Shown here in pieces: positions 2,208 to 54,787 of a stretch of 64,000 nt of DNA. This stretch comes from a virus: positions 24,475 through 88,474 of IMG/VR virus record IMGVR_UViG_3300033990_000306; one strand, written 5' to 3'. Position 1 is the stretch's first letter; every line of letters starts with the position of its first letter. The position numbers were made by a program, and so were the translations under genes. The notes beneath the pieces were generated by a model. That model saw only the letters and a list, made by a program, of their open reading frames with translations, searched no databases and was not told the origin of the DNA.

Positions 2208-3923
2208 ATGAAGATTACAATAACCAATGACACTAGTAATAATCTTCCTGCTTCTTATTCTTATAGTTTAAATTTGAGTGGGCTGGTGCCATTTAATTCT
2301 TATGGGAGCAATATTTATTTTACTAGTTCTACAAGCGGTAATAGAATTTATAGTTGGTATGAGGGTGGGGGAGTTTATTGGGTTAATATAGGGAGAGAAT
2401 TACTTATAAGCTCTACAGTAAATGTTTATGTTAAAATTGGAACTACTGGGGCTAATTATTTTAATTCTTCTACTGGTTGTTCACCACTAATTAGTACTAC
2501 TTATGGAGAGTATGATACTGGGTTTAAAGTATTTCAGTTTTATGATAATTTTGCAGGTACAGTATTAAGCTCAGCGTGGACTACAATTACTACTAATGGA
2601 GGTACATATTCAGTTAATAATGGTATAACTGTTAGTGAAAATACTCAAACAACCGATATGAGAGTAGTAACAAAATCAACATACAGTAATGGTATACTTG
2701 AGGCTTATATTTTGGGTCAAACCTTTGGAAGTTATAGAGGTACTGGGTTAGAATATGATACAGTATTGCCAAATAGTAGTGGAAATAATGGACAATATGG
2801 ATATAGATGGATGTCTTCTCTTAACAGCGAGCCGGGAAACTATATTCAGTCAGTGGTAAATGGTGGGGATAATACTATAGTTAGTCTTGGTAGTATTTCG
2901 TCTTCTTATAATTTTCTTTTAACAGCAGATTGGAATGAAACGGGTTATGTAGCTTGGTTTAATAATTCTTCTACTACACCACTATTATCAGTAAATAGTA
3001 GTACAGTTACTTATGGTCCAGCTTATTTAGCTATTTATGCTGGGTCTGATGGAAGTAATATAGGGACTATAGATGTCGCTTATATTAGGTTTAGAACTTC
3101 TTTTAACAATGAGAAACCTAACGTAGCAATTCCACAAGGTTTAAATTTGCTTTCAGAGTTGACACTTGTTAGTAGTACTATAGTAAAGGGTTATGGGTTT
3201 GACTCTCTTACTAATACATTGACTGTAGTTCCTCTTAATTTATCTCCAATTTCAGAAATAGGATTTAATGAAGTATTTGGGGAAGAAAGTAGATTTGCTT
3301 TTTATGAGGGCTTTTTTAGTTTTCCTAAGAGTATTGGGGTAATTCCTCCTAACATTCCAATATTAGAGTTTATGGATTCATTTTTCGAAGGACTGTTACC
3401 AGTAGAGCATATTTATGAAGTAAAGAATTATGACTTGATAAGACAGCAGAATGTTGTTGTTATGTGGGTGGATGACTTAGACCAGACTTATATTGGGTTC
3501 GGTAATGAGAGTTGGGGAGATTATTCTATTTCGGCTGATATTTATTTAATTGGGCAAAATACTAATGGGTTGCTAGATAATATTGTTAGTACTATTCACC
3601 AGAGAGTAGCTAGTTTTGATAGTAGAAATTCCTTTATAGAGCTTGATAAAGTTGTATGGATTAAGTTGGAGAGTGAGGAGAATTTTCAAAGTTCAGTAAG
3701 AGGGGCTACAAAGTATAGGTTTACTTTTTCAGTAAGAGTTTATATTAATGAATTGTTGGATAGGTACTCTACTGGGGGAGTTACTAGTATGTATATGAAT
3801 ATTTCTGGAGAAAGTTCTACTGGGATAAGTACTAGTTATAGTAGTACAATATTAGTTAATGCTGACATTACGTCAGAGCAGTTTAATCAACTTATGAGTT
3901 CTACTATTAGAAAAATTATTTAA
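2208..3923 (+). CDS. virion protein: N-terminal DUF2341/concanavalin-A-like domain plus tail-completion-like C-terminal domain
   Basis: ITITN...IYF...SWYE...YWV...YGEYDTGFKVFQFYDNFAG pattern typical of DUF2341 proteins; shared C-terminal domain; AAGGAG RBS. Confidence 0.6.
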   Translation: MKITITNDTSNNLPASYSYSLNLSGLVPFNSYGSNIYFTSSTSGNRIYSWYEGGGVYWVNIGRELLISSTVNVYVKIGTTGANYFNSSTGCSPLISTTYGEYDTGFKVFQFYDNFAGTVLSSAWTTITTNGGTYSVNNGITVSENTQTTDMRVVTKSTYSNGILEAYILGQTFGSYRGTGLEYDTVLPNSSGNNGQYGYRWMSSLNSEPGNYIQSVVNGGDNTIVSLGSISSSYNFLLTADWNETGYVAWFNNSSTTPLLSVNSSTVTYGPAYLAIYAGSDGSNIGTIDVAYIRFRTSFNNEKPNVAIPQGLNLLSELTLVSSTIVKGYGFDSLTNTLTVVPLNLSPISEIGFNEVFGEESRFAFYEGFFSFPKSIGVIPPNIPILEFMDSFFEGLLPVEHIYEVKNYDLIRQQNVVVMWVDDLDQTYIGFGNESWGDYSISADIYLIGQNTNGLLDNIVSTIHQRVASFDSRNSFIELDKVVWIKLESEENFQSSVRGATKYRFTFSVRVYINELLDRYSTGGVTSMYMNISGESSTGISTSYSSTILVNADITSEQFNQLMSSTIRKII

Positions 3924-3960
3924 CTGCTAATTTAAATATTACTAATGAATATGGTGAAAT

Positions 3961-5259
3961 ATGGTTACAATACCGAATGGTGTTTTATATTATGCTCCGA
4001 TTACTTTGACTTATTATTATAATGAAGTAGTTCCTCACGTTGAAATAGACACTTTACAGAATATAACAACCACCTATACAACTACTAACGCTACTATGTT
4101 GGGCACTACTTATCAGCAACAGCTTTTCATTCCTATGAATAATTCTTATAGTACAACAGCTAATTCAGATTGGAGTAATGTAGTGTTTTTTGATGTTGGT
4201 GGAAATTTATTGCCTTCTTGGATAGAGAATTTTAGGGGTATAGGTACTGGAGGGACTACGGCTTTAGTGTGGGTTAAGAATGCTGGGTTTAGTACTAATT
4301 CTAGTACAGTTAAAATGACAGTTGCTAGTACTACTCAAAGCCAAAGTAATTTAATTACAGTTTATACAACTACTTATAGTACTACTAATGTTATTACTTT
4401 CAGTAGTACAATGTATATAGGCTTCCAAGACAAGAGAAACTTTCTCTTTAATTCTGGAGGTACAACGGGGTGTAATTATTTGCTTAAGTTGGGGTTAGGA
4501 GGAGTAGACAATGGTAAGCAGGTGTTTAATTATTATGGAGGGTTTGAGGTACAGGCAATTCCTTTTGATTGGTTAATGATGTTTATTTATAAACCAGAGT
4601 TTCCTAGTGATGGGGGAGTGTTAATAAGTAGTTTAGGGGGATGGCAGGGTTATGTTACTAGTTATCAAACTAAAGTTCCAGAAATATTAGAGTGTATGTT
4701 TAATAGTGGGACTGCTAATACAGCCGCTTTAGGAGTAGTACAGAATAGAGAAGCTGGTATTAATCAACAGCCAGTAGACTTGAGTGACACTAGTTTTGAC
4801 AACCCAGTAGGAAATTTAGCTCCTACATTTACTTTACCTACAAGAGGGTTTATGCAAATGGAGTTTAATGTTGGGGGTTATTTTGGAGAATGGTGTATAA
4901 AGACTAGTAATATGCAAGACCACGTTTGTGCTGGGTATGCTTTTAATGGGAGAAATTATGTAATGAGTTTATTTGTTACTGCTGACAAATTGCAGGGACA
5001 GAGTAATTATGGTAATGTTAATATGACTAGTCAGAGTACTAGACAGACTACAGGTATTCCTTTCTTTGAGGTTAATGTGCCGGGTCAGAGTGGGTTTTTA
5101 GACTTTGGAAATTTTAGTGGGAGTAATACTCAATTCTTTTGGTTGAGGACAAGAGAATATGTTCAGCAACAGCCTTCGGCAGTATATGGAGTATTAAGTA
5201 GTAATGTAGTAGCACCGACCTATACTTTGTCTTTTAAGGAGAGTTTGGGGGTTAATTAA
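3961..5259 (+). CDS. DUF2341/lectin-like virion protein, possible receptor binding
   Basis: IPNGVLYYAPITL, NVVFFD..GNLLPSWIE, DNGKQVFNYY, FFWLRTR motifs; S/T-rich; TATA box at 3931-3936. Confidence 0.6.
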   Translation: MVTIPNGVLYYAPITLTYYYNEVVPHVEIDTLQNITTTYTTTNATMLGTTYQQQLFIPMNNSYSTTANSDWSNVVFFDVGGNLLPSWIENFRGIGTGGTTALVWVKNAGFSTNSSTVKMTVASTTQSQSNLITVYTTTYSTTNVITFSSTMYIGFQDKRNFLFNSGGTTGCNYLLKLGLGGVDNGKQVFNYYGGFEVQAIPFDWLMMFIYKPEFPSDGGVLISSLGGWQGYVTSYQTKVPEILECMFNSGTANTAALGVVQNREAGINQQPVDLSDTSFDNPVGNLAPTFTLPTRGFMQMEFNVGGYFGEWCIKTSNMQDHVCAGYAFNGRNYVMSLFVTADKLQGQSNYGNVNMTSQSTRQTTGIPFFEVNVPGQSGFLDFGNFSGSNTQFFWLRTREYVQQQPSAVYGVLSSNVVAPTYTLSFKESLGVN

Positions 5260-7257: not shown

Positions 7258-9023
7258 TGCCGATAAAGGATATGACTGAAATTGTAATTAAGGAAGAGGA
7301 CTCTAGGTTAGTTAAAGGTTTTGCTTCAGTAGAAATATTAGACAGACAAAACGATATGGTTCCCGTTGACGCTATGCAGGGAGCTATGTTGAAGTATATG
7401 GAGAGAGGAGGGCTTATTATGTATGGGCATTTGAATAAGCCAGTAGGAAAGGTTTTGAGTTGGGAAGTGAAGGAAGAACCTTCGTATGGAGTTCCTGCCG
7501 TTGAAATTATAGCACAGATTAATAAAGGTTATAAAATGGAAGATGAGGTTTGGGAATTAATAAAGTCTCATAAACTTAGTGGGTTTAGTATTGGAGGAAC
7601 AGCTACAGAAGTTGGGGAAGCAAAGATGGCTGATGGTAGTAATGCTAGAGTTTTGAAATCTTTAGAATTGAGCGAAATAAGTATTGTTGTTGAGCCTGCT
7701 AATCAGGGTGCATTAATAAATGCTGTAAGTATTGCTAAGGCTAGTACTGAAAAAGAAATTGATGATAATGAAGTAGAGAAAGTAGCAGAAGAGGCGGTTA
7801 AGGAAATTTTATTTGAAAGAGAAATTTTGAAAGAGAATATTAACAAGAAGAGTTATCCGTGGAGTAAGTGTATTTCTGACCAGAAGAAGCACGGTTATAG
7901 TGCTGGGTCAGCAAAAAAGATTTGTGGTTCTATAAAGGCTAAGTATGGTAAAGGAATTGGAATGTTAGATTATGACGAAGATTTTATTATGCATACTTTT
8001 ATAATTCAGAAGGCAGAAGGGAAAGACCAGAAAGAGTATAAAGCTAGACCTTCGAAAATGTTTATGGAGTATTGTATTCCTAAAGCTCTAGAAAAGGAGA
8101 GAGGAGATGAGGGTGGAGCTAGAAGATTATGTGGGTTTATATTTTATTATGAATTTCGGGCAGATTTGCTTGAAGCAGAAGATTGGGCTATGAATGGAAA
8201 AATTAATGACGATATGCTTCTGCACCACAATATACATAGTTATTTTGCTTATCAGACTAAGAGTAGTATTATAAGTAGACATTTGGAGAATGGAGTATTT
8301 CCAACTTTGCAATGGTTTGATAAGTGTGTAGCTAATTATGAAGGGGAAGAGTCTCCAGAGAGAGCTTGTATTTATTTGTGGAGTTCTAATTACTATAATT
8401 TGGGTAAAGAGAACGAGCCGAGTGTACCTGTTATTGATGACGAAATAAAGAATTTGAGGTTATATTTTCCTAATGTAATAAAGAGTATTGACACAATGAT
8501 AGAGGTAATGAAGCCTTTTCACGGGTTTAAGAATTGGGAAGATTGTATGAAGAAAATAGGAAAAGGTTCGAAGAAGTATAGTAAAGAGGTCAAGCAAAAA
8601 ATTTGTGGAAGACTTAAAGCTGACTATGAAAAAGAAAATAACATTGAGAAAGCTTCAAGACTAAAGAGAGAGGAAGTTCCTGATTTCGTTAGTTGTCCTT
8701 ACTGCGGAGAGAGTGATTTTGAAGTAGGAGAGAGTTACCCAGTTATACCTAGTGGAGAAGGTCCAGACCCTAGTATAGAGGGAATGTTCTATGAAGCTAA
8801 ATGTAAGAATTGTGGAAAGACTTCTAGGTTTACAGTTTGGGATACTGGTAATGACGAGGACATTGAGGTACAATTTGAAGATGAGGAGACCGAGAAAGAT
8901 TCTCACTATGACCCAGAGATAGTTGACGAAAGTGAGGAAGACAAAGAGAAGCGGGAGAAAGAGCGAATAGAGAGATTTCTTAGGGCTTCGAAGGTTGACC
9001 AGACAGATAATAAAAAAAAATAG
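7257..9023 (+). CDS. HK97-type prohead maturation protease with long multi-domain C-terminal extension
   Basis: VKGFASVEILDRQND, YGHLNKPVGK (His), LSGFSIGG (Ser), LSEISIV.EPAN in the first ~160 aa; followed by four Cys-pair helical repeats and a CPYC..CKNC zinc ribbon. Confidence 0.9.
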   Translation: MPIKDMTEIVIKEEDSRLVKGFASVEILDRQNDMVPVDAMQGAMLKYMERGGLIMYGHLNKPVGKVLSWEVKEEPSYGVPAVEIIAQINKGYKMEDEVWELIKSHKLSGFSIGGTATEVGEAKMADGSNARVLKSLELSEISIVVEPANQGALINAVSIAKASTEKEIDDNEVEKVAEEAVKEILFEREILKENINKKSYPWSKCISDQKKHGYSAGSAKKICGSIKAKYGKGIGMLDYDEDFIMHTFIIQKAEGKDQKEYKARPSKMFMEYCIPKALEKERGDEGGARRLCGFIFYYEFRADLLEAEDWAMNGKINDDMLLHHNIHSYFAYQTKSSIISRHLENGVFPTLQWFDKCVANYEGEESPERACIYLWSSNYYNLGKENEPSVPVIDDEIKNLRLYFPNVIKSIDTMIEVMKPFHGFKNWEDCMKKIGKGSKKYSKEVKQKICGRLKADYEKENNIEKASRLKREEVPDFVSCPYCGESDFEVGESYPVIPSGEGPDPSIEGMFYEAKCKNCGKTSRFTVWDTGNDEDIEVQFEDEETEKDSHYDPEIVDESEEDKEKREKERIERFLRASKVDQTDNKKK

Positions 9024-39500: not shown

Positions 39501-40006
39501 GTGAATAGGGAAGAGGTGAGAATAGTGGCGACAGTTGAAGAAGTGGTGGAAGGGTTCAATAAAAGGTACAAAGAGAATTTTGGCTATATGGACTTGCCGA
39601 GTTTTGTCATAGTGAAGACCAAAGCTTTTGTTGGCGGGTATAGGTTTGGGCTATTGGTTAAGGAGATAGAAGGGGCGTTGAACTGCCGATACTTTGGTGT
39701 GGAGAGTGCAGAAGGAGTTGTAGAGCTGGATTTCGAGAAGAATGAAAACATTGTTAAGGAGTGAGAATAGTGGAAGACATAGAGAAAGTAGTGGCAGAGT
39801 TTAATAAAGATTTTAAGGAGAGGTATAAGGTTCTGCTATTGCCTCATTTTGCGACAGTGCAAATAAAGAGGTTCGTGAGTAAAGCTATTTTCAACGAATT
39901 GATTAAACGTGTGGAGAAGCTAGACTACAAATATTATGGCATAGAGAGCTACAATAGTATAATCGAGGTTAATTTTGTGAAAACAGAATACCATATAGGG
40001 AAATAG
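39501..40006 (+). other. pair of tandem paralogous small genes (39501..39764, 39761..40006)
   Basis: Shared RIV...E.VV..FNK..KE....LP.F..V..K.FV and Y.G.ES motifs. Confidence 0.75.
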
Positions 40007-40081
40007 GTTCCGGTTTACGGAATGTATATGGTACCTGTTGGAGCATATTCCGAGTTAATAGAGAAATAAAAAAAGAAAATA

Positions 40082-40370
40082 TGCAGGCTGTAACCAGAGG
40101 GGTCCGATAAAGTCACCCGCCTGTGGATAATTCTAACGTCTGGTGTCCCGTCAGCAGACTGTTCAACCGACAAGAAGAATTTCTTGTTGTCTGTTGACAA
40201 TATGTTCAGAGGTTGACTGCTCCGAGTAAGGTTACCTGCTACTTACTGCAAACGGAGTTATATAGCAGGGAAAACTCTGGAGGGTGAAATTGGGACAAGT
40301 AGCCCGCTAGAGATAATGCCCAGTAGGCAGGGCTTCCACGTAGTCTGGGCGGGTAATGCTAAAAACTGCC
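40082..40370 (+). ncRNA. candidate large, multi-pseudoknotted structured RNA of unknown family
   Basis: GC-rich intergenic island with more than 10 complementary helices, several of them loop-to-distal pairings (see findings). Confidence 0.65.
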
Positions 40371-40380
40371 AATATGTAAT

Positions 40381-40734
40381 TTGGAGGCGAAAAAAACGAA
40401 AGAGAAAACAGTAGTTATAGAAGAACAACCATTGATAGTCTTGGTAGGAATGTCGGGGTATGACAAAGAGGCTCATAATTTGCCCATAATGGCACATATG
40501 CTGAAAGAAGCAGAAATAGGCAAAGAGTTTAGTGCCTATTGCGGAAACATAAGTAGGGACGCTTATGAGGAGTCTCTGAAAGTAATATACAAAGACGAAA
40601 ATGGAGTGGCTGGGCTATTGAGAAGTCACGGGTACTATGATAGCTCAAACCAGAACAATGAGTATGAGAATGAGCCTACTGTAGTATGGTTTGAACTCAG
40701 GGTTCCTACTAATGGGTGGAATGGGGGAGACTGA
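40381..40734 (+). CDS. hypothetical protein
   Basis: 117 aa ORF; start uncertain. Confidence 0.55.
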   Translation: MEAKKTKEKTVVIEEQPLIVLVGMSGYDKEAHNLPIMAHMLKEAEIGKEFSAYCGNISRDAYEESLKVIYKDENGVAGLLRSHGYYDSSNQNNEYENEPTVVWFELRVPTNGWNGGD

Positions 40735-40739
40735 AAAGT

Positions 40740-41483
40740 ATGGTGAGTAAAAAAGTGAATTATTTTAAAGTTTTGGGAGAAGGGTTGAAGACTGTGAAAG
40801 GTTTTCAATGGACTCCCGGTGAGTGGAATGAAGAACCTAATGCAGTAGTTGACGGAGAAGCTTGTGGAATGGGACTTCACGTTTATATTGGGCGACCGAA
40901 TTGGAAGTTTCAGTATTATCTTCCAGACCACGTTTATAGAGTTGAGAAGGTGGAGGGTTTATGCGGTAAGGATGAAGAGAAAGCGAGGTTTAAGAGGGTG
41001 AAATTAGCTAAGCTTCCAATGAGTCTAGAAGAGCTTCTTGGTCCTGAGAAAGACGGGTTGAAAGGGACAGATTTGTCAGGAGCTGTTTTAGCTTCAGCAA
41101 ATTTATACAGAGCAAAACTGTCTAAAACTCAACTGTCAGAAGCGAATTTGGCAAATGCACTTTTAAGTGAAGCAGATTTATCTGAAGCAAATTTATTAGA
41201 GGCTATTTTGTCAAATGCATATATGAGTGAAATAAACTTATCAGGAGCAAACTTAACAGCAGCGAATCTGTCTAAGGCATTTTTAGTAAGAGCAAACCTT
41301 TCAGGAGCTAGGTTAATAGGAGCAAATCTTTCAGGAGCAAGTCTACAAAATGCAAACTTGTCAGGAGCAGATTTAGTTAATGCAAATTTGTCAGAAACAG
41401 ATTTGTACAAAACTAATTTGACAGGAGTAGACTTGTCAAAAGTAAATCTCTCTGGAGCAGACTTAACTTACGTAATTCGCTGA
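40740..41483 (+). CDS. pentapeptide-repeat protein with N-terminal CG.GLH domain
   Basis: More than 25 tandem A(N/D)LS.-type pentapeptides; ATG 40740 with GGGGGAG RBS. Confidence 0.9.
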   Translation: MVSKKVNYFKVLGEGLKTVKGFQWTPGEWNEEPNAVVDGEACGMGLHVYIGRPNWKFQYYLPDHVYRVEKVEGLCGKDEEKARFKRVKLAKLPMSLEELLGPEKDGLKGTDLSGAVLASANLYRAKLSKTQLSEANLANALLSEADLSEANLLEAILSNAYMSEINLSGANLTAANLSKAFLVRANLSGARLIGANLSGASLQNANLSGADLVNANLSETDLYKTNLTGVDLSKVNLSGADLTYVIR

Positions 41484-41542
41484 GGCACTGATGAGCCCGT
41501 GAAATTCGGGCGAAACCGCAATATTTTGTGCGGTCTGCCAGC
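41479..41542 (+). ncRNA. type I hammerhead ribozyme, predicted cleavage after C41535
   Basis: Stem I GGCA/UGCC, CUGAUGA 41488-41494, stem II GCCCG/CGGGC, GAAA 41512-41515, stem III CCGCA/UGCGG, GUC cleavage triplet. Confidence 0.93.
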
Positions 41543-41565
41543 CAAAGTGACTGGAGGAAAATAGT

Positions 41566-41850
41566 ATGTACGTAAGTGGTAGAATGCCAAAGGGGGAGTA
41601 TGCTTACCATAAACTTACTCTCGAAGAAGCAAAGAACCTTGTAAGTAGAGGAAATTTTGTCTCTGCTGTAAGGGACAATACGACAGCTAGTGTGCTTAGT
41701 TATCTACTGGAGGTAACTATTCCAGTAAATAAAGAGCCTGTAATTGACTCGAAGGAAGAAGGGCTAATTTTCGTGCCTCACGGACAGGTAAGAGGAGTGA
41801 AAGTTAGTGATATTGACTTCCACTTTAATTTAGTGTTTCCTTTGAGGTGA
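41566..41850 (+). CDS. DUF1874/AcrIII-1 (STIV B116-like) homologue with altered catalytic motif
   Basis: KLTLEEAKNLV....FVSAV...TA.VLS.LL.V.IPVN matches the family, but SAIGH is replaced by SAVRD. Confidence 0.7.
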   Translation: MYVSGRMPKGEYAYHKLTLEEAKNLVSRGNFVSAVRDNTTASVLSYLLEVTIPVNKEPVIDSKEEGLIFVPHGQVRGVKVSDIDFHFNLVFPLR

Positions 41851-41853
41851 AAA

Positions 41854-41997
41854 ATGTATTATATAAGAACAGTCGAAAATAACGAGATACTAGTAAGGAA
41901 AGTGAAAACGGTCTCAGAAAGAAACTATTTCCTTAGCAGAGGTAATTCTAAACTAATCCCGTACAGAGAGTACGAGCTACTAAGGAAGAGGCTATAA
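41854..41997 (+). CDS. small basic hypothetical protein (47 aa)
   Basis: GAGGTGA RBS, MYYIRTVENNEIL... Confidence 0.45.
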   Translation: MYYIRTVENNEILVRKVKTVSERNYFLSRGNSKLIPYREYELLRKRL

Positions 41998-42265
41998 TGA
42001 CAAAAGTGCAAGCCTCTAAAGAAATCGAAAGATTAAAGAGAGGCGAGTAAATCACATTTCATAGATATAACTATGAAGAGGAGGTGAAAGGTATATGGAT
42101 GCAGAGCTTGAAGAGGTAGAACAGCAGATAGAAGTACTGCCCGTGAAAATAGAGAAGCCTATAGTTTTGAAGGCAAATCTTGAGGTACGGGGAGTAGACT
42201 AAAAACATTTTAGTAAAGAAAATTTTATTTCTTTATTTTTGTATGTAGTTAGAGGAGGGTTTAAA

Positions 42266-43348
42266 ATGGTGAGTGAAGAGAAAGCTGAAGATTTGGTTGA
42301 GTTGTGCAAGGCTTTTAAGGAGAAAAATTATGAGAAAGTCCTTAATTCGTTTCCGAAGGAGAGGGAGCAGAGAATTAAGGTAATGAAGTTGATGATAGAG
42401 AAGTTAAAGCAGTTTGATAGTATTAAGTCAAAGTTTAAGAAAAATTTCATTTATATGGAAGGTCTTGAAACAGATGTAGAGAGTTTTACAGAGATTCTTC
42501 CTATGCCGAAATTATTGCATAATGAGAAAGGTGAAGCGGAGTTTTTAGTTCAACCAGTAATAACGCCAATCATTGAAAGACGTGTGACTCTAGTAGATGC
42601 ATTTGTAATTGGTCAGGACGATAGTGGGTTTTGGGTAGAACCTATGATAGAGTTACTCTTTTTTAGAGCCAAAAGATTTCTAAGTTTAAGTGAAGTTGAA
42701 GTAATTAAAGAAATAAAAAATACTTTACTAGCAGGAGAAACTGTAGAAGGTAATACTATAGTAAAAGTTGGGAAATATAGGCTACAAGGTGATATTAACA
42801 TAGAAAAAGTACATAGTAGCTTTAGTAATCGAATAGCTCAGGTAGTAATTCCTTCTAAATTAATTCCATTTGTATCTAAATATTTGGAAGTTAATTCTGC
42901 GTTCTTTAAACTATTATTTGCTGTATCGTTTAATACACGTTTTAATGAAATTGCAGTTGAGGATTTGCAGGTAGAAATAGAGTTTAAGAAAGAAGTAAGT
43001 CAAGAGGACAGAGAGAATTTTATGGTTAATTTGCTTGAAGAAATTAAGTCAATAAGACAAGAGATTTCTGGTTTCGTAGGACAATTTATGTTAGCAAAGG
43101 AAATAGTTATTCCGTTTGAAAATCACGAAATAATTTTGAAGAATACTTCATTGCCGTTGTATGTTGAAGAAAAAGGAGAATTAACGTATTTTGAGGTGTA
43201 TAAAGAGGCAGAAATTACAGTTAGGTCTCCTCACCATAAAGAAGTTAATTTTACACTTACAGAAGGCGGTTATACACTTAGTAAAAGTGGAGGAAATACA
43301 TTAGACCAAGTAGAAGCTTGGTATAAAAGTTGGGGGATGAAAATATGA
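42266..43348 (+). CDS. paralogue 1 of a triplicated RxQGD/SPHH protein family
   Basis: IGQDDSGFWVE, RLQGDIN, FENHEI, SPHHK...GGY.LSKSGG; start moved to the ATG with a GGAGGG RBS. Confidence 0.75.
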   Translation: MVSEEKAEDLVELCKAFKEKNYEKVLNSFPKEREQRIKVMKLMIEKLKQFDSIKSKFKKNFIYMEGLETDVESFTEILPMPKLLHNEKGEAEFLVQPVITPIIERRVTLVDAFVIGQDDSGFWVEPMIELLFFRAKRFLSLSEVEVIKEIKNTLLAGETVEGNTIVKVGKYRLQGDINIEKVHSSFSNRIAQVVIPSKLIPFVSKYLEVNSAFFKLLFAVSFNTRFNEIAVEDLQVEIEFKKEVSQEDRENFMVNLLEEIKSIRQEISGFVGQFMLAKEIVIPFENHEIILKNTSLPLYVEEKGELTYFEVYKEAEITVRSPHHKEVNFTLTEGGYTLSKSGGNTLDQVEAWYKSWGMKI

Positions 43349-44463
43349 GTTTGGAAGAATTGAAAACAGCGTTAGAAAACAGAGAGTATGAAAAAGTAAT
43401 AAGTATGTTTCCACAAGACAGGCGACCAAGACTTGTTACAATAAGCGTAATGACAGCCCTTTTGAGAATAGAGAAAGAGCGAGTTAAGTTCAATAAAAAT
43501 TGTAATTGGGCTGCCGGAGGTAAAATAGCTTCTACTATTTACCAGTTAATAGGAGAGCCTCCAGAATATTTAATGGTCAGAATAAGTGCAAAAATATTAG
43601 TACCGAATGCAGACATAAGATATAGAAGATATGCTTTTGCATTTGATTTTGCTTTCATAATAGGAGAAGACGACAGTGGCTTTTGGGTGGAGGTATTAGA
43701 CAGATTCCCATTTGATTATGGCGATTTGACAGTTGGTGAAATTAGAAGAAGACTTAGTTGCGGGAAAGAGTTGTCTACTATTACGGAATGGAGACTTGGT
43801 AACGGAGAGCTTTACAGAGTTCAGGGTGACGTGAATGTCTCCTATAGAGTGTTTGGTCTGGACAATGGAGTTGTTCATAATATTATAGACTTAGCAGTTA
43901 CAACAGTAGTGCCTGAAATTTCAAAATATTTTGAGTCTGTTAGAAACCTTATTAGTTCATTCTACGAGTTTTTGTCTTCGTTTTCTCAGGAAAAAATATC
44001 AAGTAATAACTTAGGAGATTTTATAGCTGAAGCAAAGAAAACAGAAGAAGGAGAACAGTTAGAAAATTTAGCTGAGGTTATTCAAGAAAAACTGATTGAG
44101 GCTTATAATAGAATAGAAGAATTTTATGTTAAAAATTTAGTCGTTCCTGAGTATGAGTTAGACTTTGAAAATCATAAAATTCAGTTAAAAGAAGCTACAG
44201 TTCCGGTTAGTGTAGGTTGGAATAGTGGGATGAATGTTTTTCTAGTATTTGGGGAAGCAGAAATGACCGTTAAGTCTCCTCACCACAAAGAAGTTACAAC
44301 GTTTTTAAGTAGGGGAATATATACATTGGCTAAGAGTGGAGGACTAGGTATGAGGGATATAGAGCAACTTATGCTTTCATTTGCCAGCTATGGCGTAGAC
44401 CCAGTAAAAGGTTATTATGTTAAAAAGGAGGCGAAAAAAATTGAAGTTAGAAGAATTAATTAA
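43345..44463 (+). CDS. paralogue 2 of the triplicated family
   Basis: IGEDDSGFWVE, RVQGDVN, FENHKI, SPHHK. Confidence 0.75.
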   Translation: MSLEELKTALENREYEKVISMFPQDRRPRLVTISVMTALLRIEKERVKFNKNCNWAAGGKIASTIYQLIGEPPEYLMVRISAKILVPNADIRYRRYAFAFDFAFIIGEDDSGFWVEVLDRFPFDYGDLTVGEIRRRLSCGKELSTITEWRLGNGELYRVQGDVNVSYRVFGLDNGVVHNIIDLAVTTVVPEISKYFESVRNLISSFYEFLSSFSQEKISSNNLGDFIAEAKKTEEGEQLENLAEVIQEKLIEAYNRIEEFYVKNLVVPEYELDFENHKIQLKEATVPVSVGWNSGMNVFLVFGEAEMTVKSPHHKEVTTFLSRGIYTLAKSGGLGMRDIEQLMLSFASYGVDPVKGYYVKKEAKKIEVRRIN

Positions 44464-45505
44464 ATTGTATGAAGAAAAGCAGTATAGCAAAATGATAAAG
44501 TTATTTCCACAGGACAGAGCAGAGAGGCTGGAGGTTATAGGAATATTAGTTGAAGCTTTAAAATTTAAAAGAAAATTTATTGGTAAGTGGAGAATAGAGA
44601 ATACTTCTTCCTTTAAGTCTGGAGTAATTAAAAGAAAAAATAAAATAGAGTATTTTGTTATTGGGGCTTCTATTACTTATTCATATTATAACAAGTATGA
44701 TTTTAGAAAGTCAAATACAGAAAATAGATATGGTACTTTTGTAATAGGGGAAGACGATAGTGGTCTCTGGGTAGAAGTATTAGGATTTGTAAGTGAGAGC
44801 GTAGATTATGAGGCTGATGAAGTATTAAGTATGTTAAATGCTGAACAGAAATTTAGTGGAAAGTTTCCAATGTTAGAAGGTGGTTGGGTTACTGCAAAAA
44901 GAATGCAGGGAGACATAAATCTAGTTGGGCAAGATTTAGCTAATTATTTAAGTGATGAATTTTTCCACTATATTACAGGTAATAGTAATATAGATTTTCT
45001 TGAGTACGGGTTTTTAAATTTCATTGATATAGTTATATATTTTGAAACGGCTTTGGGTATGGTAGTTTATGACAAACCTTCATTTGAAGAGTTTAAAAAG
45101 TTTAACAGAATAAAGTCTAATAAGTTGTTTGGAATTGATGAAGCTAAATTAAAACCTCTTTATGAGGAGTTGATTAGGTTGTCTTATGAAGTGTTGAATA
45201 GAGCTAAGTATTTATTTAAACCTTGTAACAATGCTGTTATAAATTTTCAGAATCACAAAATTACATTGCATAATACTTCTGTTCCATTTACTGTTATTGA
45301 CCAATTAAATAATGCTTTTATAGTGTTTGACGAAGCAGAAGTTGTTATTGAGTCACCACATCACAAAACAGTTAAAGTAGATTTAAGTAGTGGTGTTTAT
45401 AGTTTTAGGAAGAGTGGAGGAATGGCAATAGAAGCAATAAGAAGCTATAAACTTCGTTCAGAAGAAAATTTAAAAAACATAGAAAAAAGTGGAGTGTGGT
45501 ATTGA
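44441..45505 (+). CDS. paralogue 3 of the triplicated family
   Basis: IGEDDSGLWVE, RMQGDIN, FQNHKI, SPHHK; TTG start with AGGAGG RBS. Confidence 0.75.
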   Translation: MKLEELIKLYEEKQYSKMIKLFPQDRAERLEVIGILVEALKFKRKFIGKWRIENTSSFKSGVIKRKNKIEYFVIGASITYSYYNKYDFRKSNTENRYGTFVIGEDDSGLWVEVLGFVSESVDYEADEVLSMLNAEQKFSGKFPMLEGGWVTAKRMQGDINLVGQDLANYLSDEFFHYITGNSNIDFLEYGFLNFIDIVIYFETALGMVVYDKPSFEEFKKFNRIKSNKLFGIDEAKLKPLYEELIRLSYEVLNRAKYLFKPCNNAVINFQNHKITLHNTSVPFTVIDQLNNAFIVFDEAEVVIESPHHKTVKVDLSSGVYSFRKSGGMAIEAIRSYKLRSEENLKNIEKSGVWY

Positions 45506-52600: not shown

Positions 52601-52954
52601 ATGTTAGACAAATTTGTGAAAGTGTATAAAGTGTACCAGACTATGACACTTAATGAAGTTTCTGACAAACGTATAATAGGAGACTTTACAGTATTAGGAA
52701 ATACGCTTGGGCTTGACAGTACTTATACAGTTAAAATTAAAGGTACTACTTCTAAAAACTTTATGAGAATAGGTTATTTCATAGACGAAGCTAAGCCTCA
52801 AAATAAGCCAATAGCAAGAATAATATATGACAGTTATGGTCTAATTATTCATATACGAAAACACCTGTTAACACCAGAAGTTGTAGAAAGACTAAAACTC
52901 TGGGCTGGAAATAATTTAGTAGAAGGAAGATGGAGTAAGTCAAATGTTAAGTAA
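52601..52954 (+). CDS. hypothetical protein
   Basis: GGAGG RBS. Confidence 0.5.
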   Translation: MLDKFVKVYKVYQTMTLNEVSDKRIIGDFTVLGNTLGLDSTYTVKIKGTTSKNFMRIGYFIDEAKPQNKPIARIIYDSYGLIIHIRKHLLTPEVVERLKLWAGNNLVEGRWSKSNVK

Positions 52955-53801
52955 ACATACTTCAAATTTGCCTAGTTATTCTTTGGACTCACCAATAGTT
53001 TACCAGCTTGAAATAGTAGGAGGTACTTGTAACTTGAAGTGTCCTGTTTGCCCTGTAACAGAAAATAAAACAGACAGGGTAAATAACTACTTTAGTCTAG
53101 CTACACTTGACAAGCTAATAAATGAAGACGCTTTTAAAAACACTTTCTACTTAGAACTACAAATGTATGGAGAACCAACAATGCATAGAAACTTTGACGA
53201 AATAGTAAGCAAACTGAAAACTACTGGGGTCAAACTTGGGCTAAGCACTAACGCTACAATATGGAGAGAGGGCTTTAAACAATTAGACTTTATAACTATT
53301 TCCGCAGACAGCCGAATTTACAGGGTTGGGCGAAATGAAGAACACTTCTGGAAAGTAGTTGACAAAATAATAAATGAAACTAACGCTCATATTGATTTGC
53401 AGGTCATAGAAATTAACGACTGGGAAAAGCAGGTAAAATTGCTGGAGGAAAAATATAAAGACAAAAGCAACGTGTTAATAAGAACAATAGGGGACAACTT
53501 CGGAGACACGGGAAGACACCCGTTAGCTAATGATGTTTGTATTAACCCATTCATTAGTGTGAGTGTAGATAGTGACGGAGACGTAGTTCCTTGTTGCTTT
53601 ATGAATAATAAAGAGTATGTCTATGGTAATATTAATACTAACAGTCTGAAAGAAATTTGGGAAGGGCAACTTCATAAAGACTTCGTAGAAAGTTGGTTAA
53701 GCGGAAATATTATTGAGAAGTGTAAAAATTGTAGAATGAGGAGTCCACAGTTATTACATTATAGGTTTGCCGTAGAATGGGAAAGGAGAGGGTGGTTGTA
53801 A
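52944..53801 (+). CDS. radical SAM protein with C-terminal SPASM/Twitch domain
   Basis: CNLKCPVC, YGEPT.H, STNA; CINPF..V.V..DGDVVPCC...GNI...SL.EIW...CKNC. Confidence 0.88.
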   Translation: MLSKHTSNLPSYSLDSPIVYQLEIVGGTCNLKCPVCPVTENKTDRVNNYFSLATLDKLINEDAFKNTFYLELQMYGEPTMHRNFDEIVSKLKTTGVKLGLSTNATIWREGFKQLDFITISADSRIYRVGRNEEHFWKVVDKIINETNAHIDLQVIEINDWEKQVKLLEEKYKDKSNVLIRTIGDNFGDTGRHPLANDVCINPFISVSVDSDGDVVPCCFMNNKEYVYGNINTNSLKEIWEGQLHKDFVESWLSGNIIEKCKNCRMRSPQLLHYRFAVEWERRGWL

Positions 53802-54787
53802 TGATAACAAAATATTCCAGAATACCGCATATAGATAGTGATGAAGTAGTAAGAGTAATTAAAAGTCTAGAGACAAATAAGTATGTTATAGAAGAGAAAG
53901 TAGATGGCTCTCAATTTAGAATTTATGTTAGTGAAAATGGAGAACCTACTTTCGGCAGTCACGGAGTAGACTTTCAGGAATTAGAAGGCAATTATGTGTT
54001 TGGAGAGAAATACCAGAAAGTAGAAAGTATGTTTTCTCTTGCAATAAAGAGAGGACTTGAAGTTGCTGAAAGGTGGAAGACTGACCACAAGGGAGAGAGC
54101 TTAATGCTATTCTGTGAATTTATGCACTCAGAAAGGGAAAACACATTGCTATATGAAAGAGTACCTAAAAATAATCTCTATTTGTTTGACGCTAAAATAA
54201 ATGGAGAGTTAGTTAAGGAAGAAGAGAAACTAATTAACTTGGCGAACTACCTAGAGCTAGAGCCAGTTAATGTTTATGCTATACTTGACCACTTTCCTAC
54301 AATCGAAGAAGCACACTCTTACTATACTAAGCCAAGCTGTCTGGGAGGGATAATAGAAGGGGTAGTAATAAAGAATAGAGAGGCTATGGTTGAACGTTAT
54401 GGCAACATTACTTTCTTTGCTATGAAGGCGGTCAATACCAGCTTTACACAGTTAAATAAAGAAACTTGGAGAAAAGAAAGAAAAGCTGGAATAAGAAGTA
54501 TTGACGACTTAATAGACTTTCTGTTTGAAAAAGTGGACAAACAAACTATTTGGGCTCATACTTACGCCCACACTAAAGAGGAGGGCAACCTTACTGGGCA
54601 AATGAGAGATATGGTCGAGTTAATAAAAACATTTGAAAAAGACTTTGAAGAAGACTATCGTGAAACAGTAAGCAAACTACTCTATGAGAGCCTCAAAAGC
54701 AAAATAATAAAACAGGGGCTAAGAGGACTGGCAGAGTGGTACAAAGACAAACTAATAGAAAACTTGGGCAACTCGCTAAACTCTTAA
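53801..54787 (+). CDS. ATP-dependent RNA ligase (Rnl2-like)
   Basis: KY.RI.H, EEKVDGSQFR (motif I KxDG), FCEF, YLFD, EGVVIK, MKAV. Confidence 0.8.
   Translation: MITKYSRIPHIDSDEVVRVIKSLETNKYVIEEKVDGSQFRIYVSENGEPTFGSHGVDFQELEGNYVFGEKYQKVESMFSLAIKRGLEVAERWKTDHKGESLMLFCEFMHSERENTLLYERVPKNNLYLFDAKINGELVKEEEKLINLANYLELEPVNVYAILDHFPTIEEAHSYYTKPSCLGGIIEGVVIKNREAMVERYGNITFFAMKAVNTSFTQLNKETWRKERKAGIRSIDDLIDFLFEKVDKQTIWAHTYAHTKEEGNLTGQMRDMVELIKTFEKDFEEDYRETVSKLLYESLKSKIIKQGLRGLAEWYKDKLIENLGNSLNS

Follow-up and report, generated by a model that had tools for sequence, protein, structure and literature searches.

A predicted type I hammerhead ribozyme between two genes of a probable archaeal tailed virus

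A complete type I hammerhead ribozyme is located at 41479..41542 on the plus strand of the DNA analysed here, a 64,000-nucleotide stretch of virus record IMGVR_UViG_3300033990_000306 (hereafter the window), as recognised by direct sequence reading, by a type I descriptor and by a covariance model of its class, R1. It occupies the spacer between a gene for a pentapeptide-repeat protein and a gene for a divergent DUF1874 protein of a tailed, probably archaeal virus. The motif is very probably a real hammerhead that would be competent for cleavage, and the best explanation overall, to which a probability of roughly 0.7 is assigned from the sequence, is that of a functional type I hammerhead processing a polycistronic mRNA.

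Architecture of the ribozyme and its statistical support

Reading of 41300-41800 gave a type I topology, with stems II and III as hairpins and stem I open. The 5' strand of stem I, GGCA (41484..41487, +), forms 4 bp between G41484-A41487 and U41536-C41539 (UGCC), and is followed by the core segment C3-A9, CUGAUGA (41488..41494, +), which agrees with the consensus core given in PMC3088659. Stem II with its loop (41495..41511, +) consists of 5 bp, GCCCG/CGGGC (41495-99 / 41507-11), with the closing pair G10.1-C11.1 and the 7-nt loop II UGAAAUU. The next segment (41512..41534, +) contains G12 A13 A14, with GAAA at 41512-15, and then stem III with the loop AUAUUUUG; this stem is made up of A15.1-U16.1 and a further 5 bp, giving 6 bp (41515-20 / 41529-34), and loop III is 8 nt long. 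The scissile bond is predicted at 41535..41536 (+), 3' of C17 in a GUC triplet, a position that follows from the hammerhead consensus. Downstream of this bond, the stem I 3' strand (UGCC, followed by AGC) and the 30-nt leader extend over 41536..41565 (+), with GGAGG at 41553-57.

The consensus core C3 U4 G5 A6 N7 G8 A9, G12 A13 A14, A15.1, U16.1 and H17 is present at every position (CUGAUGA 41488-94, GAA 41512-14, A41515, U41534 and C41535), as are all core-adjacent Watson-Crick pairs, namely G41495-C41511 (10.1-11.1), A41487-U41536 (1.1-2.1) and A41515-U41534 (15.1-16.1). Each of these nucleotides and pairs conforms to the acceptance rules of Perreault 2011 (PMC3088659), and the stems of 4, 5 and 6 bp are free of mismatches. 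The motif forms an island of 56% GC in a genome of 34% GC. A 3-bp distal extension of stem I is possible between G41479-U41481 and A41540-C41542, across a GA bulge at 41482-83, and this purine bulge with 2-3 distal stem I pairs recurs both in the homologue on contig G002_C33 and in a mine-tailings variant, which are described below. Loop II belongs to the UGNNAKY type, the commonest loop II of the class. A conserved tertiary contact of loop II with stem I, on which rapid cleavage at physiological Mg2+ depends, was not demonstrable, and a 4-bp pseudoknot of AAUU (41474-77) with loop II was rejected, as it is missing from the homologue. All these readings agree in every coordinate with an earlier note on this DNA, which had described a canonical hammerhead in a polycistron, with a complete core (CUGAUGA, GAAA, GUC), three intact stems, a stem I that overlaps the stop codon of the pentapeptide gene, and a predicted cut after 41535 that would leave a 30-nt leader with GGAGG before the next gene. 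The hammerhead is in the sense strand of a co-oriented gene block, and the stop codon in question is the TGA at 41481-83.

In the minimum free energy fold, stems II and III are retained and the register of stem I is shifted. In this shifted register (41477-41550), GGC at 41484-86 is paired to the second GCC (41541-43) and 41477-81 to 41546-50, giving a nearest-neighbour energy of -27.1 kcal/mol vs -23.5 kcal/mol for the canonical register, a difference of 3.6 kcal/mol in favour of the former. By these modelled energies, part of the RNA could misfold into the shifted register, which may be an inactive conformer.

The type I descriptor found exactly one match when both strands of the 88,474-bp virus record were searched. 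Two results could be taken to favour a chance resemblance without activity, namely that simulated genomes (order-1 Markov) contained 0.13 matches per genome at the loose stringency of 3/3/3-bp stems and that no match in the window reached the Rfam gathering thresholds. Against such a resemblance, matches fell to 5 in 400 simulated genomes at 3/4/4 bp and to 0 in 400 at the real 4/5/5 quality. Among the Rfam models, the best scores in E-value mode were those of Hammerhead_3 (22 bits; threshold 48.5) and RAGATH-1-hammerhead (19.7 bits; threshold 56.3), and, because RF00008 models a type III topology that is circularly permuted relative to the type I topology found here, the low Rfam score should be attributed to the models more than to the motif. 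The covariance model R1, which was trained on 12 hammerheads from other viral contigs with the window left out, part of the training set having been retrieved with the window's own stem II sequence, gave a single match on both strands of the window, at 41479-41544, with 47.9 bits, E ~1e-14, full length and no non-canonical pairs. This E-value and the compensatory changes in homologues (see below) likewise oppose chance, the probability of which is considered negligible. Across the whole record, R1 gave no second match. A type III descriptor match at 42230-42325 was rejected, since its stems have 3 bp only, it is situated within coding sequence and its occurrence agrees with the rate expected by chance.

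In total, R1 gave 55 matches, 49 of them distinct. In the alignment of these 49 class members, 96.9% of cells pair, vs 32-41% with the partners slid, and double changes occur in 12 of 14 pairs class-wide, in an alignment that is itself fitted to the model. This model-based alignment replaced a MAFFT alignment (A2), in which the short stems III were misaligned.

Homologous hammerheads in viruses and virus-like elements

A scan of IMG/VR with the core and the window's stem II as query, the loop being left free, retrieved 21 contigs, and a descriptor rescan of these contigs yielded 46 unique type I hammerheads, with several on many of the contigs and maxima of eight on contig L009 and seven on contig L002. 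On L009, L002 and L003, the hammerheads form arrays of 5-8, one per gene junction, and the upstream ORF in many cases seems to terminate at the UGA within the catalytic core. The class members are mostly intergenic and on the coding strand, with an upstream ORF of at least 50 codons on the same strand in 40 of the 46 and a downstream ORF in 44. Among the 46, the upstream stop codon ends 4-7 nt before C3 (mode 4; 4 nt in the window) or coincides with the core UGA, and the median distance from the cut to the next start is ~27 nt (30 nt in the window). The layout of the window is that of phage-type hammerheads, on the coding strand and between a stop codon and the Shine-Dalgarno sequence and start of the next ORF. 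One copy on L003 has exactly the stem II and loop II of the window. Moreover, the segment of core, stem II and loop II was matched in unannotated spacers of two isolated bacterial phages, Ralstonia phage C22, which is 96.6% identical over 29 aligned bases of this segment, and Acinetobacter phage Alexa. A triplet U-R-A before stem I was rejected as an RNA-level motif, being present in only 15 of the 49 distinct members.

None of DUF1874 protein, pentapeptide protein and TerL had a usable close relative in IMG/VR, and a lineage-specific 22-mer had no match there. A homologue search with a protein of the window virus returned only the query's own 90% cluster. A metagenome scan recovered a 98% strain variant, in which the ribozyme is identical and thus uninformative. 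When contigs of four metagenome runs were aligned to 40000-43000, the strain variants from three studies showed zero changes in 41474-41630, which is not significant at their ~1.4% divergence. In other contigs of the same runs, from mine tailings and sediment (X5, X8, X11, X12), the match is confined to 41483-41516/17, a segment comprising stem I, the core, stem II and loop II, and the flanks differ on both sides. In one of these hammerhead-only variants, which reaches a depth of up to ~690 (X12), stem III has 7 bp, is unrelated in sequence and precedes C and UGCC; in another, stem III has 3 bp, the site is GUA and a GGAGG comes after it. At least two further genomes with predicted hammerheads of the same lineage are abundant in mine-tailings and sediment habitats.

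The three Thermoplasmata metagenome-assembled genomes (MAGs) with the nearest ribonucleotide reductase (RNR) genes were also searched with R1, and one match was obtained, in G002 (50.6 bits); over 151 genomes of the class of G002, it was the only match (1/151). This hammerhead lies at 7592-7659 (-) of contig G002:C33 (L050), which is 11,683 bp long with 48.6% GC, and is 86.8% identical to that of the window over 68 nt. The contig carries a gene of the Fusellovirus VP2 capsid family at 3727-4620 (-; PF25632, E 1e-18) and a serine resolvase gene at 7931-8560 (-). It has no protein in common with the window virus, and the hammerhead is their only nucleotide similarity, which suggests that the ribozyme moves between unrelated elements. 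The two ribozymes share stem I GGCA/UGCC, stem II, a loop III AUAUUUU and the GCCA after stem I; loop II of the G002 copy is UGAAAUC, and the stop codon of its upstream ORF is the UGA inside the CUGAUGA core. In stem III, three pairs differ from those of the window on both sides and all are still paired, and this compensation is lineage-specific evidence for selection on the predicted hammerhead fold.

Flanking genes and host of the virus

The upstream gene (40716..41483, +) encodes a 255-aa protein with DUF7666 and pentapeptide repeats (PF00805, E 2.5e-40; PF24703, E 3.3e-8). The downstream gene (41566..41850, +) encodes a divergent DUF1874/STIV_B116-like protein of 94 aa (PF08960, 30.9 bits; cut-off 26), the best solved relative of which is AFV3-109 (2j6b; E 1.6e-5). 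The earlier note had called it an anti-CRISPR homologue. Membership of the DUF1874 family stands, but the designation is overstated, as the catalytic His of AcrIII-1 is missing. The GH motif of AFV3-109 aligns to RD in the window's protein, which reads SAVRDNTTA, and four distant DUF1874 homologues found by exhaustive HMMER search all carry GH; in these homologues, as in AFV3-109, the motif is SA(I/V)GH..TA. The N-terminal LNTS-type motif is missing as well. In SIRV1 gp29, the catalytic His47 of AcrIII-1 is reported to be "absolutely conserved", and the H47A exchange leads to a >2500-fold loss of activity (10.1101/778746). Compared with these viral ring nucleases (SIRV1 gp29, bioRxiv 10.1101/778746), the protein of the window resembles them in its PF08960 score above the cut-off, its best solved relative, an S-A-x-x-x-x-T-A segment and a PVN motif, and differs in having Asp in place of the catalytic His, in being without the N-terminal N/S-rich ligand-binding motif and in its short length. 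It is probably a DUF1874 family member that is not an active AcrIII-1 ring nuclease, and because the active-site residue is missing, the link between the ribozyme and anti-CRISPR expression is weakened. Further downstream, at 42239-45505 (+), three consecutive paralogous genes encode proteins of ~360-380 aa without a Pfam match, which have the motifs FVIGEDDSGFWVE, QGDINV, SPHHKEV and KSGG in common.

The TerL protein of the virus is nearest to that of Halogranum tailed virus 1 (28.5% identity, 5e-46), and its PolB has the best E-value with Haloarcula virus HCTV-16. Its RNR is 48-50% identical over the full length to those of Thermoplasmata/Thermoplasmatales MAGs, the next being from DPANN and Methanosarcinales. 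Metagenomes from mine drainage, mine tailings and sediment, belonging to three studies, contain DNA of the virus, and none of the listed public runs with this DNA is an RNA run. Because of TerL, RNR, the habitat and the ribozyme homologue in the fusellovirus-like Thermoplasmata MAG contig, an archaeal host, as claimed in the earlier note, is very probable. We infer that the host is probably an acid-mine member of the Thermoplasmata.

Predicted mRNA processing, alternatives and known hammerheads

The genes around the ribozyme are all on the plus strand, the ribozyme and the Shine-Dalgarno leader together take up the 82-nt spacer, and downstream of the ribozyme a T5 run first occurs near 42234, so that the ribozyme would most simply be part of a polycistronic RNA. 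According to the proposed mechanism, it would be transcribed within a polycistronic plus-strand mRNA of the tailed archaeal virus, and once the 3' strand of stem I has been transcribed, the RNA would fold and cleave itself after C41535. The upstream product would then comprise the pentapeptide-repeat cistron with a 2',3'-cyclic phosphate end, and the downstream product would start with a 5'-OH and the 30-nt leader, with GGAGG ahead of the DUF1874 gene. As the outcome, the two cistrons would be physically uncoupled, the downstream message would gain a defined 5' end without triphosphate or monophosphate, and decay and translation of the DUF1874 message should be altered independently of the upstream gene. 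Such separation of cistrons by mRNA processing is somewhat favoured as the role of the ribozyme.

This reading of the locus has a direct precedent, since Perreault 2011 proposed processing of polycistronic mRNA for prophage hammerheads (PMC3088659). In prophages, hammerheads flank single genes; in the haloarchaeal viruses HF1/HF2, the hammerhead lies 13 nt before the start codon and the mapped 5' end of a transcript is within 3 nt of the cut; and in Legionella, a hammerhead is found directly upstream of ardA (PMC3088659). For the window virus, we infer transcription through the site, cleavage in vivo and effects on mRNA stability and translation. Against the processing reading, stem I and the core would be hidden under ribosomes that terminate at 41481-83. 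In an acidophile, the pH of the cytoplasm may be lower than the optimum of hammerhead chemistry.

The same stop codon bears on the possibility that the ribozyme is a conditional switch, in which translation termination in stem I and the shifted stem I register would compete with cleavage, so that the fraction cut, and hence expression of the downstream gene, would be set by ribosome traffic, Mg2+ or pH. The stop codon lies inside stem I here and in or beside the core in most class members, the alternative register is the more stable one, and condition-tuned cleavage was proposed for the halovirus variant by Perreault 2011 (PMC3088659). However, genome compaction alone can explain the overlap with the stop codon, the U-R-A triplet is found in a minority of the class, and the alternative pairing uses sequence that is transcribed later than the active fold, which leaves the switch quite improbable. 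Somewhat less improbable, albeit still unlikely, is that the hammerhead mainly represents a mobile or hitch-hiking sequence, or a recombination junction that gene cassettes share, which has spread among unrelated viruses of one habitat and may cleave while doing little or nothing for the expression of its neighbours. This would accord with the 68-nt element being the only nucleotide or protein similarity between the tailed virus and the fusellovirus-like contig, with the match of other contigs from the same metagenomes to 41483-41517 only, with the varying identities of the flanking genes, as also noted in Perreault 2011 (PMC3088659), and with the single copy in the window virus. On the other hand, the class adheres tightly to one placement with respect to the stop and start codons and the stems are preserved by compensatory change after transfer, which argues for selection on the folded RNA in an mRNA context rather than mere carriage. 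At somewhat less than even odds, mobility and function may go together, in that the ~68-nt hammerhead would be an independently mobile RNA module, exchanged between unrelated acid-mine archaeal viruses and acting as a portable "mRNA insulator" before accessory genes. Its contexts would include the tailed virus, the fusellovirus-like element of a Thermoplasmata MAG and at least two further metagenome-contig contexts, and only the stems would drift after transfer, by compensatory change.

The earlier note had also considered that cleavage sets the 3' boundary of an RNA, consisting of a structured RNA (40082-40370) and two ORFs, which RtcB or the viral RNA ligase would join into a circle, a proposal that found no support and is very unlikely. 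The products of hammerhead cleavage bear the end chemistry that is joined by RtcB. The non-coding gap at 40078-40375 (+), upstream of the ORF at 40381, is significantly structured (-100.4 kcal/mol, z = -3.0 vs shuffles); it has no Rfam match beyond a chance-level group II fragment (E 2.1) and is an unclassified structured RNA. A gene for an Rnl-type RNA ligase is present at 53777-54787 (+; PF09414, 45-47 bits), preceded by a radical SAM/SPASM gene at 52944-53801 (+). Against circularisation, however, the 88-kb record contains this one hammerhead only, neither the window, as searched with Rfam, nor 39950-40450 yielded any further self-cleaving family, and because a second cut is missing there would be no 5'-OH to join. 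Neither two flanking cleavage sites nor tandem repeats, the marks of a viroid-like or retrozyme-like circular RNA delimited by ribozymes, were found. The record encodes no RtcB, and no kinase or phosphatase for end healing adjoins the RNA ligase gene. In addition, when Perreault 2011 sought circular or spliced products, none was obtained for clustered phage hammerheads (PMC3088659).

With processing of a polycistronic mRNA as the preferred reading, this ribozyme leaves the knowledge of its class unchanged and gives the very few hammerheads recorded from archaeal viruses a further member, one with a canonical core. Publications already cover type I hammerheads between phage genes as well as hammerheads of archaeal tailed viruses, and such elements have been on record for phages and haloarchaeal viruses since 2011. 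The remark of the earlier note that reports of hammerheads in archaeal viruses are rare is a fair one, but with HF1/HF2 as precedent most of the surprise is gone. New aspects are the setting (acid-mine and probably Thermoplasmata), a canonical core in a virus of archaea and, as judged from the predicted homologues, one ribozyme lineage common to a tailed virus and a fusellovirus-like element. Hammerheads are thereby extended from haloarchaeal viruses to viruses that are probably associated with acidophiles (Thermoplasmata), and the occurrence of the same lineage in tailed and spindle-type virus-like elements points to horizontal spread of the ribozyme alone. Moreover, a single ribozyme with two small flanking genes offers a compact test case for the role of intergenic hammerheads in phage mRNAs.

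The closest known systems are the intergenic type I hammerheads of phages and prophages (PMC3088659; Rfam clan CL00010), which have the identical core, three stems and an open stem I, and likewise follow a stop codon on the coding strand and precede the next Shine-Dalgarno sequence and start. They differ in that many members of the class form arrays of 2-8 per contig, whereas the window has a single copy; in that the host of the window virus is probably an acidophilic archaeon rather than a bacterium and its genome is AT-rich; and in that only the acid-mine lineage has stem I GGCA/UGCC with the purine bulge. HHphage of the haloarchaeal tailed viruses HF1/HF2 (PMC3088659; PMC7230728) also belongs to tailed archaeal viruses and lies in a polycistronic transcript a short distance before a start codon. 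However, HHphage is a core variant, whereas the hammerhead of the window has the canonical core and type I topology; its leader is 13 nt long compared with 30 nt in the window, and host lineage and habitat are unlike. A further parallel is provided by the 5' UTR and intergenic ribozymes of RNA viruses that promote translation initiation (NAR 2026, PMC13725137), which are also of type I, fill a short intergenic spacer, have a long helix III and cut a few nucleotides upstream of the next ORF. These ribozymes belong to eukaryotic RNA viruses, in which the 5'-OH is linked to cap-independent translation, whereas the ribozyme described here belongs to a DNA virus with predicted Shine-Dalgarno-dependent initiation.
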